The position numbers were made by a program, and so were the translations under genes. Source: a virus (taxonomy: Duplodnaviria > Heunggongvirae > Uroviricota > Caudoviricetes). From it: a DNA stretch of 8,206 nt. Location of the stretch: IMG/VR virus record IMGVR_UViG_2690316131_000020. One strand, written 5' to 3'. The stretch's first letter is position 1. Each line of letters begins with the position of its first letter. This document shows positions 1 to 8,206 of this stretch, piece after piece. The notes beneath the pieces were generated by a model. That model was not told where the DNA came from and did not search any database. It worked only from the letters and a program-made list of their open reading frames with translations.

Positions 1-942
1 CTAAATAGGCTGATTCGATGTGTTTACGGGAAAAAAATCGGCCCAGATCCGCGAAATTTTAATCAGCGAGTCAGCTTGGGAAGAAATGACCTGCTTATTC
101 GCACCTTCCCTAACCGCTCCTGATTCGGTTTTTATTACCGCCTCATCAGTTGGAGTTATAACCGTGGCTTCAACGTTAATAATCAGCTTTTGAGCGTCTA
201 TCAGCATCATGCGATCCGCCTGTTCGCTCACAATTACCGGTATTCTCAAAAGCTCTATCTGCCAGAACTCAGCATTAGTAAGCTGTAAGGCGTTTTCTAC
301 GGGCAAGATTAGCGACGACGTGGCAAGCGTGTTACCGTTCGCTATGTGCTTTTTGAAAAGCTCTATGAAGTTTTCGGCCTCATCAGCACCATTAAGCACG
401 CCCTCAGGGGATACGCCCGCCAACTCCTGGTCACTGGAAAGAAATTTTTTATCTATTTCTTTCACCGATTCCGATGTGATCAAGTCTCTGATCGCTGAAT
501 TGGTACCAGGGGTGCTAAATTTGATTAGCTCGTTATTCAGCATCACAATAGCGCCGAGTTTGTACAGTTTTAGCGAGCTTTCGCTTACTTCTCCCCCTTT
601 TACTGGGATTTCTTCGGCCTCTTTAAGCCATTTACTCCCCTTGCCTGATATTGATTGCAATTTTGCGCCAAAGGGAAGATTAAGCGCACTACTGATTAAC
701 TTGCCAGGTACAGACTGCGAAAAAATATACCCGCCCAGCTCTCTTGCTATCGGCTCAGCCACCAGCGACGGAAGGTTATCCGTGTTCATTCCTGCTACTA
801 CGGATTTTTCAAGGAATAACGAGACAGCCGGATCATTTCTTTTCGTCATCTCTATAGCGTCAGCATGGCTAAATTTACACGATGCCAGCACGCTGGCGGC
901 GCGAACTGCTGACACGCCTTTCATGTTTTTACAGATCATCAT
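1..942 (-). CDS. Putative major capsid protein, HK97-like fold (313 aa); family assignment tentative
   Basis: Complete ORF with TAG stop at 1-3 and ATG at 940-942, preceded by a strong SD (AGGAGGAGGAAG directly upstream). It lies downstream of the terS-like gene. The segment KEIDKKFLSSDQELAGVSPEGVLNG resembles the conserved FL-GDG-G-P-G-L region of HK97-family capsid proteins, and size and composition fit. No Walker A motif, so TerL is unlikely. Confidence 0.5.
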   Translation of the reverse strand: MMICKNMKGVSAVRAASVLASCKFSHADAIEMTKRNDPAVSLFLEKSVVAGMNTDNLPSLVAEPIARELGGYIFSQSVPGKLISSALNLPFGAKLQSISGKGSKWLKEAEEIPVKGGEVSESSLKLYKLGAIVMLNNELIKFSTPGTNSAIRDLITSESVKEIDKKFLSSDQELAGVSPEGVLNGADEAENFIELFKKHIANGNTLATSSLILPVENALQLTNAEFWQIELLRIPVIVSEQADRMMLIDAQKLIINVEATVITPTDEAVIKTESGAVREGANKQVISSQADSLIKISRIWADFFPVNTSNQPI

Positions 943-1090
943 CTTCCTCCTCCTGGAAGCACGGTGTTAGTGTTTCGTGAAAATATGGCATCAGAATAGC
1001 GGCGGCCTGTAACCGTATTTCGGTCGGCTGCTGCTTGTCGTTCATGATTTCCGTTAGTACCTCGATCGGGTCTGTTATGTATTCGCTCAT
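929..1090 (-). CDS. Small hypothetical protein (53 aa, MSEYITDPIEVLTEIMNDKQQPTEIRLQAAAILMPYFHETLTPCFQEEEDDDL)
   Basis: Below the ORF-track length cutoff; found by manual translation. ATG at 1088-1090 with GAGG about 10 nt upstream, overlapping the TerS stop. Its stop overlaps the start of the capsid-like gene (ATGATGATCTGTAA), suggesting translational coupling. Acidic C-terminal tail. Confidence 0.3.
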   Translation of the reverse strand: MSEYITDPIEVLTEIMNDKQQPTEIRLQAAAILMPYFHETLTPCFQEEEDDDL

Positions 1091-1101
1091 AGTTCGCTAC
1101 C

Positions 1102-1590
1102 TCAGTGTTTTAGGGCTGTTGGTGGCTTAGGGATGGGAAAGCGGTTTGATGAAACATTGGTAGCATTGAGTTTTTTTACCTCTTTTTTACCAATGCTGCT
1201 GATCTTGCGGTGGGTGAACTGGGCCAGCTTAAACGCGGCATCTAAAGCCAGTTTTGGATCTGTGTCCATGTTGTCAATCAGTATCCTGCCCATTGCTTTG
1301 ATGGGGTCGGGTAGGCCGTTATCCATCATCTCAATGGTGTTAATTGATGCCCGTTCCGGTGTAACTTTTTCGGTAACTTTCTTTGTAACTTTTTTCGGTT
1401 TTGTAACCTGAAAAGTTACATCAGAAGTTACAGCCTTAAGATACTTTTTCACCTCAGGATCATTGGATAGCTGCCAGCCTTTAACCCTTGCGGTCTTTTC
1501 GCTGTATCCCGCATGTATAGCGGCTTCCGTGGGATTTGCGCCCCTTGATAACGCATCAGCAAACCGCTTTTTTTTGGTCGTTAATGCCAT
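1102..1590 (-). CDS. Terminase small subunit homologue (162 aa)
   Basis: N-terminus MALTTKKKRFADALSRGANPTEAAIHAGYSEKTARVKGWQLSNDPEVKKYL matches the conserved HTH region of phage TerS proteins (KQ-F---Y--G-N-T-AAI-AGYS-KTA). ATG at 1588-1590 with GAGG 7 nt upstream. The longer track ORF (to 1728) would use GTG without an SD and overlap the upstream gene, so the ATG start is preferred. Confidence 0.7.
   Translation of the reverse strand: MALTTKKKRFADALSRGANPTEAAIHAGYSEKTARVKGWQLSNDPEVKKYLKAVTSDVTFQVTKPKKVTKKVTEKVTPERASINTIEMMDNGLPDPIKAMGRILIDNMDTDPKLALDAAFKLAQFTHRKISSIGKKEVKKLNATNVSSNRFPIPKPPTALKH
1361..1431. repeat. Cluster of GTAAC/GTTAC pentamer repeats inside the terS-like gene (4 direct plus 2 inverted copies); further copies upstream at 1613-1635
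   Basis: Plus-strand GTAAC at 1361, 1373, 1385 and 1403; GTTAC at 1415 and 1427. These encode the repeated KVT motif (VTFQVTKPKKVTKKVTEKVT) in TerS. Two more GTGTAACTTTT copies lie in the noncoding leader at 1613-1623 and 1625-1635. Confidence 0.55.
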
Positions 1591-1717
1591 GCAAAAACCT
1601 CGTTTTGAGGGGGTGTAACTTTTCGTGTAACTTTTTTGAAAAGCAAAATTTTCTACGAATGAGACGGGGGGCGGTGTCCAGGGCGATCGACTTTCCGGCC
1701 GGAACACTCCCCCCCTG

Positions 1718-1879
1718 TCATTGCTCACCGAGTAACGAGATCAGGCCTTCAACTTCATCACTCAGCTTGTTTATTCGTGTCTCAAGCTCTGCGATCTTTT
1801 CCATCAATGGCGCTATGGTGTCTCTTGTTTCCTCGCCAATGGCTTTAATGATGCTTGCCTCGCGTTCTGTGATAGCCAT
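1718..1879 (-). CDS. Small hypothetical protein (53 aa, MAITEREASIIKAIGEETRDTIAPLMEKIAELETRINKLSDEVEGLISLLGEQ), likely coiled-coil
   Basis: Below the ORF-track cutoff; found by manual translation. ATG at 1877-1879 with GAGG about 10 nt upstream. Tight junction with the upstream ORF stop (TAA ACA ATG). Heptad-like helical sequence. Confidence 0.4.
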   Translation of the reverse strand: MAITEREASIIKAIGEETRDTIAPLMEKIAELETRINKLSDEVEGLISLLGEQ

Positions 1880-4814: not shown

Positions 4815-5028
4815 AACCCCCCCCATTTTCACAATCAGCAACAAGAATATTTTTAGCGTCATTCAGCGACCGCGTTGCGATGTATCGGATACATTCCAGG
4901 GCGAACGTTGTCCGGTCTTTCTGTTCTTCTCCCTGCGCAAGCTCTGCCGTGCATTCAATATCAATAAGCGCGTGCATCAGCGTAGTGAGCGCGGCGGCGG
5001 CTGCGTCCGGTGTGGTTTTATTGCACAT
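4807..5028 (-). CDS. Small hypothetical protein (73 aa, MCNKTTPDAAAAALTTLMHALIDIECTAELAQ...)
   Basis: ATG at 5026-5028 with a strong SD (AGGAGG, 6 nt spacer). Overlaps the 3' end of the upstream small ORF by 11 nt. Confidence 0.5.
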   Translation of the reverse strand: MCNKTTPDAAAAALTTLMHALIDIECTAELAQGEEQKDRTTFALECIRYIATRSLNDAKNILVADCENGGGYA

Positions 5029-5209
5029 GGCACACCTCCTGACGAATACGGGCGGCGAATACAGCAACACAACCGGACGGGCAACGGCTACGTGCTTCGC
5101 GTTCCGTCCAGGCGGTTACGTGGATGATTTGATGTTCTGACGCGCCAAAGATGATAAAGCGCCAGAGAAAGGCGGTTTGAGAATGTACAAGGGTAGGGAT
5201 AGTAGCCAT
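5018..5209 (-). CDS. Small protein, copy A of a tandem paralogous pair (63 aa, MATIPTLVHSQTAFLWRFIIFGASEHQIIHVTAWTE...)
   Basis: ATG at 5207-5209 with a strong SD (AGGAGG, 8 nt spacer). The N-terminal 15-20 codons are paralogous to the ORF starting at 5578, with differences mostly at third codon positions. It is the 3' part of the long 409-codon track ORF. Confidence 0.55.
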   Translation of the reverse strand: MATIPTLVHSQTAFLWRFIIFGASEHQIIHVTAWTEREARSRCPSGCVAVFAARIRQEVCHVQ

Positions 5210-5369
5210 GTTGGCAGCCTCCTCAGTGTGGTTAAGATAACCGCCACCGGAAACGCCAATTTCGCTGGTGGCGGACTGTACAGGGTTGGCGTAACCGGAC
5301 ACTGAAGAAACCGGCGCGGATTGCTCCGCCCCCGTACAGCCCACCATTGATAAGGTGTGACTATGCGGC

Positions 5370-5395
5370 ACAAAAAAACACGCGGGGCGCGTGTT
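5370..5395 (-). terminator. Intrinsic terminator-like hairpin plus U7 (minus strand), inside the stop-free frame between copies B and A
   Basis: On the minus strand: stem ACACGCG / CGCGUGU with loop CCC, followed by 7 U (the complement of the plus-strand A7 at 5372-5378). Confidence 0.4.
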
Positions 5396-5578
5396 ATGCG
5401 CTTCAGTTTTGCCCAGGACGCCAATCCCGGCACCCGTTTTATGAGGTGCGCGGGAATCATAGCTATTTTCGACACTGGCGATCAACTGGTTTTTTTCTCC
5501 GATATTCAGGGCCAGAAAACGCCACACAAAGGCCGTTTGTGTGTGTACAAGGTGTGGTATATGATTTACGGCAACCAT
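5396..5578 (-). other. Copy B of the tandem paralogous leader ORF (MVAVNHIPHLVHTQTAFVWRFLALNIGEKNQLIASVEN...); no in-frame stop before copy A
   Basis: ATG at 5576-5578 with AGGAG SD (5 nt spacer). Paralogous to copy A. The frame stays open through a terminator-like hairpin into copy A, so its real 3' end and coding status are unresolved. Confidence 0.3.
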
Positions 5579-5666
5579 AACGGCTCCTAGTTTACGTTGT
5601 TGGTTAGACGCCCCGTATGTGTTCCCAGCACTGCGGGGCGTTGATTTTTGTGTAATGGCAAGTACA

Positions 5667-5711
5667 ATGGTAATTACCATGTAGGTATAGTAATGAAGGG
5701 TAATTACCATG
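5667..5711. promoter_or_regulatory. Two palindromic operator-like sites in the divergent control region: ATGGTAATTACCAT (5667-5680, perfect 14 bp palindrome) and AGGGTAATTACCAT (5697-5710), with a -10-like TATAGT at 5686-5691
   Basis: The perfect palindrome is repeated 30 bp downstream, where it overlaps the start codon of the Arc-like gene. An AAGGG SD lies 8 nt before that ATG. The sites sit between the plus-strand RHH gene and the minus-strand leader ORFs. Confidence 0.5.
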
Positions 5712-5882
5712 TCAACACCATTAGAAAAACGTTCGCCTCCATACCAAATGCGATTACCGGAAGACTTCAGAGCGCAGCTAGAAGAAGCAGCTAAGGCCGA
5801 TGGCGACACATCTTTAGCCACTTGGATTAAACGCGTTCTCCGCAAAGAATTACAGCAACGCGGCATAGAACCCAAAGGATAA
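5709..5882 (+). CDS. Arc/MetJ-type ribbon-helix-helix DNA-binding protein (57 aa), candidate repressor
   Basis: Below the ORF-track cutoff; found by manual translation: MSTPLEKRSPPYQMRLPEDFRAQLEEAAKADGDTSLATWIKRVLRKELQQRGIEPKG. The RLPE-D/E-L...EAA...G-x-T/S...I...L pattern is typical of Arc-like RHH domains. An in-frame stop lies just upstream at 5694, and the palindromic operators overlap its promoter and start. Confidence 0.7.
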   Translation: MSTPLEKRSPPYQMRLPEDFRAQLEEAAKADGDTSLATWIKRVLRKELQQRGIEPKG

Positions 5883-5924
5883 AAACTATCAGCGCCGTGG
5901 TGTGAGGTATTACGGCGCATTGCT

Positions 5925-6113
5925 ATGCAGGACAACACAATGACCGATAAAGAATTGACCAAAACATTATCACCGGCACGGAAAAGACGGCGCAGAAAGA
6001 TAGAGCATGAATCAGAAAGATTCGCGCCATGTGCTTTTGCCCTTGAGCAATTCCTTAAAGAGTACAGGGAAAAGCGCTCATTGCAGGTATGGCAACGAAC
6101 TGAACCAGACTGA
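5925..6113 (+). CDS. Hypothetical small basic protein (62 aa); weak call
   Basis: ATG ORF downstream of the Arc-like gene and upstream of the terminator at 6209-6235, but with no convincing SD. The antisense frame is part of the rejected 409-codon ORF. Confidence 0.25.
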   Translation: MQDNTMTDKELTKTLSPARKRRRRKIEHESERFAPCAFALEQFLKEYREKRSLQVWQRTEPD

Positions 6114-6208
6114 TTGCATTGCCCACCAGCCTGATAGCGGCTATCATCCCCGTGCTTATGTTTGGGATCACATACACATAAGGCGCAGCGGGTTAATTGT
6201 TCAGAAAG

Positions 6209-6235
6209 GCGGCTCCATATCGGGGCCGCTTTTTT
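6209..6235. terminator. Intrinsic terminator, probably bidirectional, between the convergent plus-strand RHH operon and minus-strand alpA
   Basis: Stem GCGGCUCC / GGGGCCGC (8 bp with one G-U pair), loop AUAUC, then T6 on the plus strand. On the minus strand the same hairpin is followed by CUUUCU. It lies about 30 nt downstream of the alpA stop. Confidence 0.6.
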
Positions 6236-6261
6236 CGTGTTTGTCATATCTGTGATACCCG

Positions 6262-6468
6262 TTAAGCAGCCGTTCCGCGTGCTTCCTCTTCGCGTTCTTT
6301 CTGCCAGGACAACACATCATCCTCATACCATCCGCGACGGCGTAAACCAACGCGAAAACCCTGCGGAAATTCTCCGGCGTTGATCATGCTTTGCAGCGTG
6401 CTGTCTGCCTTGATGTGGATAATTTTTTTTACTTCCTGGCGAAAGATAATTTTTCTGATTGCTTCCAT
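6262..6468 (-). CDS. alpA: AlpA-family phage transcriptional regulator / excisionase-like HTH protein (68 aa)
   Basis: Motif ...FRQEVKKIIHIKADSTLQSMINAGEFPQGFRVGLRRRGWYEDDVLSWQ matches the AlpA family signature (G-K/E-FP...R..GW.E.D...W). ATG at 6466-6468 with AAGGT SD. Positioned two genes from a P4-type integrase. Confidence 0.85.
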   Translation of the reverse strand: MEAIRKIIFRQEVKKIIHIKADSTLQSMINAGEFPQGFRVGLRRRGWYEDDVLSWQKEREEEARGTAA

Positions 6469-6964: not shown

Positions 6965-8206
6965 CTACACGGCTCGGATACCCCTTTTACCACTGGCGAG
7001 GGTTACGCCCGTCGCCGCAGCCTCGACAAATTCGCCCCACCAGCGCATCAGCACGATGCGTTTTTCTATGTAGTTGCTCCGGTTGTATGCCCGTCTAACT
7101 TCGTTGGTGTCGACGTGGGCAAGTGCCGCCTCTATTACGTCCGGCTCGAATCCTTCCTCGTTCGCTGCTGTGCTGAATATGGCGCGTAATCCATGAGACA
7201 CCAGCACGCCAGCGAATCCCATACGCCGCAATGCTGCGTTAGCTGTCTGGCTGTTCATCGGCTGCTGTGGGTCTTTCAGACTTGGGAAAACGTAATTGCG
7301 GTGGTGGCTGATTGGTTTCATGGCCTCCAGCACCGCCATAGCCTGACCGGAAAGCGGGATAACGTGATCCCTGCGCATCTTCATGCGTCCGGCAGGTATC
7401 GTCCATTGCTTCGCGTCCAGGTTGATTTCATCCCACCGCGTTGATGACGCTTCGGCGGGACGGGTTACGGTCAGTAACTGCCATTCAATCAGTAATCTGG
7501 TCTGCCGTTCTGTTGCCGATACTGATAAAGCCTGCATAAGCTCGGGCAGCTGTTCGGGGCGGATTGTTGGCATATGTTTTTTTACAGGTGAGGGAAACGC
7601 CTTACGCACATTCATAGCCGGATTGGCATCAATCAGCCCACTGTTGGCGGCGTAATCCATTACCTCATTAACGCGCTGTAAAACCCGCTTGAGTGTTTCC
7701 AGGTTGCCGCGCTCCTTGATGGGGGTAAGCACTTCAACGAACCTTCGGGCGGTGAGGGTATCTATTGGCGTGTTGCCGATGAACGGGAATACATATTTAT
7801 CCAGCGAACGCCAGATGTCTTTAATCGTGTTGGGGGCCAGATTCTGGCTGATTTTCACCTGGTACCATGCCGCCGCCACATTTTCGAACGTGTTCCCTTG
7901 TCTTCGGGCCTCTGTCTCTCTTTTTTGCCTCTCGTGGTCCTGCGGGTCAGTTCCGGCACTGATTAACGTCCTGTACTCGCTACGGCGTTTTCTGGCATCA
8001 GCCAGGGAAACATCTTCAAGCGATCCAAAACTCAGCAATATTCTTTTTTTGTCCGATGGTCGGTAGTAGGAAAATCTCCAGAGTTTTGATCCAGACGGTT
8101 TGACCAGGAGAAAAAGCCCTCCGCCGTCCTGCAGGGTGTACTCCTTTTGCGCTGGTCTGGCTGCTTTGATCTGCACTGTGGTTAATGGGTGTGTTTTTCT
8201 CGCCAT
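6965..8206 (-). CDS. int: Tyrosine recombinase / integrase, P4-like family (413 aa)
   Basis: N-terminal arm-binding-type region (TLQDGGGLFLLVKPSGSKLWRFSYY). C-terminal catalytic motifs HGLRA and LAHVDTNEVRRAYNRSNY (H-x-x-R and catalytic Tyr). ATG at 8204-8206 is the last triplet of the window, so its upstream signals are not visible and a longer N-terminus cannot be excluded. Confidence 0.9.
   Translation of the reverse strand: MARKTHPLTTVQIKAARPAQKEYTLQDGGGLFLLVKPSGSKLWRFSYYRPSDKKRILLSFGSLEDVSLADARKRRSEYRTLISAGTDPQDHERQKRETEARRQGNTFENVAAAWYQVKISQNLAPNTIKDIWRSLDKYVFPFIGNTPIDTLTARRFVEVLTPIKERGNLETLKRVLQRVNEVMDYAANSGLIDANPAMNVRKAFPSPVKKHMPTIRPEQLPELMQALSVSATERQTRLLIEWQLLTVTRPAEASSTRWDEINLDAKQWTIPAGRMKMRRDHVIPLSGQAMAVLEAMKPISHHRNYVFPSLKDPQQPMNSQTANAALRRMGFAGVLVSHGLRAIFSTAANEEGFEPDVIEAALAHVDTNEVRRAYNRSNYIEKRIVLMRWWGEFVEAAATGVTLASGKRGIRAV

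Follow-up and report, generated by a model that had tools for sequence, protein, structure and literature searches.

The stretch of viral DNA analysed here, 8,206 nucleotides from IMG/VR record IMGVR_UViG_2690316131_000020 (Caudoviricetes; the whole stretch is called the window below), carries on its plus strand, at positions 5709-5882, a 57-codon gene that probably encodes a ribbon-helix-helix (RHH) repressor of the Arc/Mnt type and that, together with a control region of 128 bp, would constitute a compact immunity switch of a phage-inducible chromosomal island (PICI). In sequence the window is identical with an approximately 8.4-kb island of Escherichia coli O26:H11 str. 11368, and judged by its gene layout the element is a Gram-negative, PICI-type satellite. 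Gram-negative PICIs and capsid-forming PICIs are widespread gene-transfer vehicles, and our literature searches on PICIs and phage satellites returned no description of a repressor of the RHH or Arc-like type. The present results supply a conserved 57-residue repressor candidate, the location of its candidate operators and a predicted switch geometry, for a kind of satellite whose repressor had not been identified.

The initial annotation had noticed that the ORF track misses the gene. It is also absent from the existing annotation of this allele: RefSeq/PGAP calls no open reading frame (ORF) here and gives the opposite strand a partial 'Icd-like' pseudogene instead. An ATG-initiated frame of 57 codons is nevertheless present in the window, and its homologues form 93 clusters in a single-sequence search and 238 in a profile search, nearly all of them 56-58 residues long. 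They span the Enterobacterales, the Pasteurellaceae and the Aeromonadales, which represent three orders of the Gammaproteobacteria, with hosts that include Escherichia, Salmonella, Klebsiella, Yersinia, Serratia, Pantoea, Xenorhabdus, Photorhabdus, Gilliamella, Pasteurellaceae, Aeromonas and Oceanimonas. Across 58 unique coding sequences, read in the plus-strand frame, entropy is 1.49 at the third codon position and 0.64 and 0.37 at the other two, and pN/pS is 0.23; an E. coli allele that is 87% identical to the window differs by a single amino acid in the RHH protein. The conserved length, the variation at third positions and the low pN/pS together argue that the frame is under purifying selection and, on these measures, it is a real and conserved gene.

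The initial annotation had also assigned the product to the RHH class, and both the fold pattern and the profile matches bear this out. The predicted secondary structure consists of a strand at about residues 10-17 (PYQMRLPE), helix A at 18-31, a turn formed by G32-D33-T34-S35 and helix B at 36-50. The family alignment displays the same elements, namely an alternating strand (Y12-Q13-M14-R15-L16), helix A, a conserved G-D-x-S turn and helix B, with R15 invariant and G32 and D33 conserved in at least 90% of the sequences. A strand-helix-helix order, an N-terminal strand in which polar and hydrophobic residues alternate and a G-x-S/T/N turn between the helices are what is expected of an RHH protein. 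Similarity to RHH profiles is found through PHROG 228, 'Arc-like repressor', which matches residues 6-55 (E 1.5e-6), through Pfam Arc, which is the top family for 30 of 75 family members (best E 1.5e-4), and through a syntenic homologue of 38% identity in Klebsiella phage P12620-1, which matches RHH_5 (5.5e-5), HicB (at its cutoff), Arc and RHH_1. An hhalign comparison with Arc aligns the strand and helix A only, in register (probability 30%, P 6e-4), and pairs Q/P11, Q13 and R15 with Arc Q9, N11 and R13. The window protein also matches the NCBIfam model YlcI_YnfO_N weakly (E 0.0014).

Structure prediction yielded an AF2 monomer model (pLDDT 75) with an extended N-terminus that lacks a partner strand and with helices at 18-31 and 36-50; most of the matches listed by Foldseek for this model are RHH proteins, many of them RHH antitoxins, none being individually significant. 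The protein would form an intertwined RHH homodimer with a two-stranded antiparallel sheet. A profile search of a set of 5.8 billion proteins returned, among the 120 matches listed, none beyond the tight family and none with a precomputed Pfam domain, so that the bridge to annotated RHH families is provided by the PHROGs and by the 38% phage homologue. A profile search of PDB sequences was set aside: its top matches were designed helical-repeat proteins, spurious helix-loop-helix resemblances, and the sole RHH match was AmrZ (E 1.1). From its sequence and secondary structure, we regard the 57-residue protein as RHH-type, of the Arc/Mnt kind, in a family that is itself uncharacterised although the kind of regulator is well known. 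In one metagenome-assembled genome of the Enterobacterales (locus L005, about 6180-6360), downstream of the repressor gene lies another small gene that matches DUF3950 (E 1.6e-9) and has a similar C-terminus, EIEPKG, which suggests a tandem duplication or a second specificity.

The upstream region contains the palindrome GGTAATTACC at 5669-5678 and again at 5699-5708, 30 bp from start to start, in agreement with the initial annotation, which had described two copies at this distance, one of them a perfect 14-mer and the other overlapping the ATG. The first copy is the core of the 14-mer ATGGTAATTACCAT (5667-5680), here termed candidate operator O1; the second, candidate operator O2, ends one base before the ATG, which it thus abuts. 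GGTAATTACCATG is common to both. No further copy of GGTAATTACC occurs in the window, even with one mismatch allowed, and hence none near int or the att site. By chance 0.10 matches would be expected, and two or more appeared in 1 of 200 shuffles; a perfect 10-nt palindrome occurring twice within 60 bp was seen in 0 of 3000 first-order Markov simulations of the window. A possible third, degenerate site, GGCAAGTACA (5657-5666), retains 7 of 10 positions; it lies 12 bp upstream of O1, over the -10 element of the rightward promoter described below. This member of repeat family D1 is weak in the window; in other loci a better match, reading TGTAATTACA or TGTAATTGCG, stands at this 12-bp offset.

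Indirect evidence on what reads these sites comes from a comparison of 72 loci, one genome per species, aligned at the start codon. Almost every locus has a palindrome at -10 from the ATG and a second one 30-35 bp further upstream, and O1 and O2 change together from locus to locus, tracking the predicted DNA-reading strand of the protein. The strand motif [QP][YF]QMRL accompanies GGTAATTACC at O2 in 28 of 29 loci, QFPMRL accompanies GGTATATACC in all five loci that have it, and QYQ[IL]RL accompanies TGTAATTACA in 13 of 16. Replacement of Q13 by P coincides with a change of the site centre from AATT to ATAT, the part of the site that the central residue of the strand would be expected to contact in an RHH dimer. 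When 2.9 million viral contigs were scanned with a pattern for the operator pair, 24 contained it, and in 22 of them the gene abutted it, the remaining two being tandem repeats in unrelated DNA; the same scan found no operator pair in helper phages that lack the gene. The 57-residue protein is the factor proposed to bind the palindromes, and the natural classes of protein and operator offer a small model for DNA recognition by RHH proteins.

Two promoters are predicted around these sites. The leftward one, P(-), extends over 5687-5715 on the minus strand, with a -35 element TTGACA (5715-5710), a 17-bp spacer and a -10 element TACTAT (5692-5687); it agrees with the consensus at 10 of 12 positions and would start near 5680. 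The rightward promoter of the RHH gene, P(+), extends over 5641-5668 on the plus strand, with TTGATT (5641-5646), a 16-bp spacer and TACAAT (5663-5668), agrees at 9 of 12 positions and would start near 5675. O2 lies inside the P(-) spacer, and O1 covers the predicted start sites of both promoters, occupying about +2 to +11 of P(-) and about -6 to +4 of P(+), so that the P(+) start falls within it. The gene is transcribed away from the long minus-strand operon, just as had been claimed at the outset; the divergent promoters also claimed then need one refinement, for as predicted they are not back to back and overlap nearly face to face, with their starts about 5 bp apart.

This arrangement recurs elsewhere. 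Of 54 unique loci, 47 have TTGACA at exactly this place, and a -10 element of the form TAnnnT stands 16-18 bp away, mostly 17-18. Codons 1-3 of the RHH gene (aTGTCAA), read in reverse complement, supply the hexamer, and the serine at codon 2 is encoded by TCA in 47 of 48 cases; elsewhere in the gene TCA accounts for 21% of serine codons, a bias that argues for constraint at the nucleotide level. The loci of the GGTAATTACC type also keep, for P(+), a TAnAAT -10 element abutting O1 and a TTGnTT -35 element. As far as sequence alignment can tell, the geometry of promoters and operators is conserved across the loci.

In the proposed mechanism, the cassette would hold P(-) closed. Dimers would bind both GGTAATTACC palindromes and, with O2 in the P(-) spacer and O1 over the P(-) start, their occupancy would exclude RNA polymerase and shut the promoter off. 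The operon behind it, comprising the seqA/CI(C4) RNA, the Icd-like gene, the RepA helicase, TerS and the capsid genes, would thereby be silenced. Since O1 also covers the P(+) start, the weaker promoter of the repressor gene would be subject to negative autoregulation, and because the two promoters overlap, RNA polymerase could not hold both at once. We infer from this geometry that the protein represses P(-), regulates itself and takes part in the quiescence of the island. Its status as 'master repressor', a role suggested in the initial annotation, is that of a candidate, since the same island contains an AlpA-type regulator and a CI/C4 RNA of the P4/P1 type.

The closest parallel is immI of phage P22, where, as in the window, the strong promoter has an operator between its -35 and -10 elements and a second operator is placed at the start site. 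Both systems combine a small RHH repressor gene, oriented opposite to the operon it controls, with overlapping promoters and an antisense RNA layer, which is sar in P22 and C4/CI in the window. The respective roles of Mnt and Arc, both RHH proteins, and of the antisense sar in P22 have been reviewed (PMC11016777). P22 differs in that two proteins act on two different operators, whereas one protein apparently serves both sites in the window, and in that its operon encodes the antirepressor Ant, whereas the operon in the window is devoted to RNA immunity, an Icd-like gene, replication and packaging. The window thus has the opposed RHH gene, the overlapping (predicted) promoters and the operators in the core of the strong promoter that characterize immI, but its operon of C4/isrK, Icd-like, RepA, TerS and capsid genes takes the place of an Ant operon, and orthology with Arc is not detectable. 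Membership in immI was accordingly rejected; the cassette would work like immI without being one.

A likeness in proposed role can also be drawn with Stl/Rpr of the Gram-positive PICIs (SaPIs), where a repressor gene by the integration module is oriented opposite to the replication and packaging operon. The two differ in that Stl is transcribed in the same direction as int (PMC6092414), whereas the gene in the window is opposite to int and convergent with alpA, and in that their sequences are unrelated. Family and homologue searches with the 57-residue protein returned no Stl/Rpr-type protein, and assignment to the Stl/Rpr type of PICI master repressor was dropped.

Several observations weigh against the repressor assignment or limit its reach. 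All Pfam matches of the window protein itself fall below the gathering thresholds (14.3 bits against a cutoff of 20.4 for Pfam Arc), and the Foldseek E-values are at least 0.9. Promoters and their start sites have been predicted from the consensus alone. The covariation of protein and operator classes goes back to only some three to four independent evolutionary changes. Residue 14 (M, I or L) distinguishes the GGTA class from the TGTA class; with a correct Arc alignment it would be expected to point into the protein core, so that the real determinant may be the flanking residues (SP versus TD). Full repression of P(-) would also stop synthesis of the CI/C4 RNA made from its leader. Finally, AlpA has been shown by experiment to be required for the induction of related islands (PMC6092414), and the RHH protein therefore cannot be the sole control.

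What P(-) drives bears directly on the foremost alternative. The leftward unit begins with a Shine-Dalgarno sequence AGGAG (5589-5585) and an ATG at 5580-5578, after which the RNA elements follow (5264-5580 on the minus strand). Rfam identifies there an isrK/seqA-like element at 5449-5373 (isrK, 66 bits; gathering score 50) and a C4/CI-like antisense RNA at 5351-5264 (C4, 77.6 bits; gathering score 45), both on the minus strand, together with a c4-a1b1 match of 21 bits. In Gram-negative PICIs, the models for C4 and isrK recognise elements related to P4 CI and to its target seqA, according to Mageeney et al. 2023 (PMC10111431). It is this neighbouring operon, and not the RHH cassette, that has the hallmark of P1/P4-type RNA immunity, C4/CI and target elements in an operon leader. 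The Icd-like gene follows at 5018-5209 on the minus strand, as annotated and as matched by the NCBIfam Icd-like model. As a separate observation, an N-terminal Icd-like motif occurs twice, as HLVHTQTAFVWRF from 5580 and as TLVHSQTAFLWRF from 5209, flanking the isrK/seqA-like and C4/CI-like RNAs, a doubling that recalls the duplicated a1b1/a2b2 targets of P1 immI.

To our knowledge, no protein repressor of P4 PLE has been described. P51 of P1 is controlled by the unrelated C1 repressor, and transcription from PLL of P4 reads through PLE. The immunity regions of P1 (c4 RNA-icd-ant) and P4 (PLE leader, seqA-CI-seqC) resemble the leftward unit in its order, an isrK/seqA-like and a C4/CI-like element followed by an Icd-like gene, and P4 vis and PLL have their likeness in an AlpA/Vis-type gene upstream, in the same orientation as the operon. 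The window departs from P1 and P4 in having an RHH gene and operators between the alpA-like gene and the promoter.

Alternatively, the RHH protein could be a genuine regulator of the switch without being its maintenance repressor: it might act as an Arc-like transient brake that limits early expression after induction or entry, or as a CopG-like copy-number controller of the replication operon working together with the antisense RNA, while quiescence is secured by the CI/C4 RNA and the absence of AlpA. The island does contain a complete RNA immunity element of the P4/P1 type, and the pairing of an RHH protein with an antisense RNA on a replication operon is the logic of plasmid pMV158, in which CopG, an RHH protein, and RNA II jointly control the operon that encodes the replication initiator. 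In pMV158, copG is co-transcribed with repB from the promoter that CopG represses, whereas the repressor gene in the window is separate and oppositely oriented. AlpA, moreover, is the established inducer of related islands, and the data on those islands need no repressor (PMC6092414). Two features speak for maintenance instead. A gene with its own promoter and terminator that points away from the operon is Mnt-like, as befits a maintenance repressor, and not Arc-like, that is, co-transcribed; and C4/isrK accompany the RHH cassette, besides the window, in just 1 of 12 other loci checked with Rfam, the cassette being, in the remaining ones of these, the only recognisable negative element. We consider a non-maintenance role unlikely, though deserving of serious attention.

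The first leftward genes also vary by locus (Icd-like proteins, a primase, a protein of about 113 residues), and this variety, taken with the scarcity of C4/isrK, indicates that the repressor, operators and promoters form a portable cassette fronting different early operons. The leader itself is conserved across loci as a hairpin, TCTRACCACAACRTTA, GAGGTAAYG and ATGGCT; the window departs from this consensus downstream of the hairpin, with its Shine-Dalgarno AGGAG and a first gene that begins ATGGTT. A conserved hairpin at 5608-5641 is GC-rich, lies directly upstream of P(+) and is followed by a T-run, the whole spanning 5608-5649 on the plus strand. Compensatory changes are seen in 8 of its 11 pairs among 31 loci; read as plus-strand RNA the hairpin has 9 mismatches and 25 G-U pairs, whereas the minus-strand reading has 28 mismatches and 6 G-U pairs, and the plus-strand fold is the more stable in 26 of the 31. 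The element looks like a plus-strand intrinsic terminator, possibly that of an antisense RNA directed against the start of the first leftward gene. A plus-strand promoter to feed it, scoring at least 9 of 12, was not found between 5240 and 5600, and the conserved TAAYGK upstream makes a poor -10 element by eye in the alignment.

The gene downstream raises another possibility, that the RHH protein is the antitoxin of a type II toxin-antitoxin (TA) pair, with the palindromes as the autoregulatory operator and the second gene, ORF2, as the toxin. ORF2 (5940-6113, plus strand) encodes 57 residues from the ATG at 5940, has a basic N-terminus, a KRRRRK motif and a core EHESERFAPCAF, and matches phrog_21027, a family of unknown function (E 1.2e-15). 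Automatic names of RHH homologues do include 'HicB family antitoxin', many Foldseek neighbours are, as mentioned, RHH antitoxins, and in E. coli the second small gene follows within the same unit. Family searches, however, matched ORF2 to no toxin family, and no ORF2 homologue was detected in 72 loci of other genera, its occurrence being restricted to E. coli alleles; a tblastn search of the phage collection likewise gave no match. In most other genera no conserved co-directional ORF follows the RHH gene, and in many loci a terminator-like hairpin, recognised by eye, stands directly after it, on which grounds a TA module was rejected. Operators placed in the core of the opposite promoter would also be pointless for a TA pair. 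With no conserved partner downstream in most loci, membership in the type II systems is very improbable.

The transcription unit of the RHH gene and ORF2 ends in an intrinsic terminator with a 14-bp stem and TTTTTT (6203-6235, plus strand), conserved in two other alleles and convergent with the alpA-like gene. Between the two genes, after the RHH stop codon, sits a hairpin GCGCCGT(N13)ACGGCGC without a T-run (5892-5918, plus strand), which is conserved in an O111-type allele and in EcCICFT073, there following a different first gene. This hairpin marks the right-hand edge of the exchangeable cassette.

It is scarcely more credible that the palindromes serve another factor, such as an AlpA-type protein, the integrase at arm sites, IHF or a helper-phage protein, with the RHH protein acting at other places. 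A role in recombination or activation would be conceivable for AT-rich palindromes near int and alpA, but the class of operator goes with the RHH strand motif, whereas the leftward genes beside the cassette vary from locus to locus, the pair occurs in viral contigs only where it abuts the RHH gene (the two tandem repeats aside), and the window has no extra copy near int or att.

The weakest alternative holds that the minus strand is the coding strand here, through a frame of 409 codons (5018-6247, 1230 nt open) or the 'Icd-like' pseudogene at 5732-6247, with the 57-codon ORF as its antisense shadow; this is highly improbable, for although so long an open frame is unusual, PGAP placed a partial Icd-like feature in it and its pN/pS of 0.39 is moderately low, stop codons break the frame, inside a 147-nt core, in 28 of the 58 homologous sequences, its low pN/pS is expected anyway from third positions that coincide with those of the sense gene, and variation gathers at the third positions of the plus-strand frame. 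The NCBIfam Icd-like model covers only residues 360-403 of the 409-residue product, that is, 5018-5209, its last 44 residues, and the frame was rejected as a gene. PGAP attaches the pseudogene labels 'Icd-like' (5732-6247, minus strand) and 'ash family' to parts of it. With stops in about half of the sequences and the Icd-like match confined to the end, the antisense feature over 5732-6247 is an artefact, and a systematic annotation error is exposed, the call of an antisense pseudogene where the real gene goes unannotated. The RefSeq feature masks two real small genes, the RHH gene and ORF2, and the same masking is seen in Klebsiella phage P12620-1 (locus L077, 2098-2835).

A parallel to the switch is offered by EcCICFT073, the prototype Gram-negative PICI. 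Between its alpA and Icd-like genes, in the opposite orientation, lies a gene for a 59-residue protein of the YlcI/YnfO family (WP_000190587.1; locus L079, 9474-9764), followed by ORF2. The ORF2 protein is identical to that of the window although the repressor-like gene upstream is unrelated, and its core is conserved in a diverged allele as well. The EcCICFT073 operon promoter reads TTGACG-18-TATAGT (10 of 12 consensus positions) and contains GTGGGCCACACC twice, in the spacer and again at -10/+1. The two islands are thus alike in the position and size class of the small gene, in the ORF2 after it and in paired repeats within the operon promoter. They are unlike in that the repeats of EcCICFT073 are direct 12-mers (GTGGGCCACACC) whereas those of the window are palindromes, and the similarity between the two proteins, both uncharacterised, is insignificant (E 0.27). 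Because the geometry is shared while the small gene and the repeats differ, the repressor-plus-operator unit looks like an exchangeable immunity cassette, of which these would be heteroimmune alleles.

A wider model can be put forward tentatively, although it is less likely than not to hold. The RHH cassette and its non-orthologous counterpart in EcCICFT073 would be the repressors of Gram-negative PICIs and capsid-forming PICIs, exchangeable modules that define heteroimmune groups; a third layer would be a sar-like antisense RNA, to which the plus-strand terminator hairpin would point; and induction would proceed in one of two ways. AlpA-driven transcription from the convergent alpA unit might run antisense through the repressor gene into the operon, or a helper phage might encode an anti-repressor. 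The read-through proposal is drawn by analogy from the PLL-vis read-through of P4 and from the antiterminator activity of Pseudomonas aeruginosa AlpA (PMC7969949).

The remainder of the window has the organization expected of such an island. Inserted between tRNA-Pro/yejM on one side and yejO on the other, the element encodes an integrase at 6965-8206 on the minus strand, after which the minus-strand order is AlpA-like, isrK-like, C4 RNA, Icd-like, DUF4222, RepA-family helicase, TerS and major capsid protein. The AlpA-like helix-turn-helix gene is annotated at 6262-6468 on the minus strand, convergent with the rightward RHH-ORF2 unit.

The RHH module is present in 535 of 5426 complete E. coli genomes (about 10%), including O157:H7 and O26:H11; the O157:H7 copy lies in an island adjoining phoQ. 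It is also present in a packaged Pasteurella element: Pasteurella phage Pmp8 (OR544139.1; locus L074, 5007-5183) has a repressor gene 79% identical to that of the window, in the same opposite orientation. Its 15.3-kb record contains genes for capsid, portal, protease, terminase, tail terminator and primase and an AlpA-like gene, with no other tail genes; although deposited as a phage, Pmp8 by its gene content resembles a capsid-forming PICI. The packaging module of the window (1-1728) is made up of TerS, an ORF of 53 residues and the major capsid protein, which adjoins a yejO pseudogene, and the O157 and CFT073 relatives carry an additional head decoration gene and lack a portal and a terminase large subunit.

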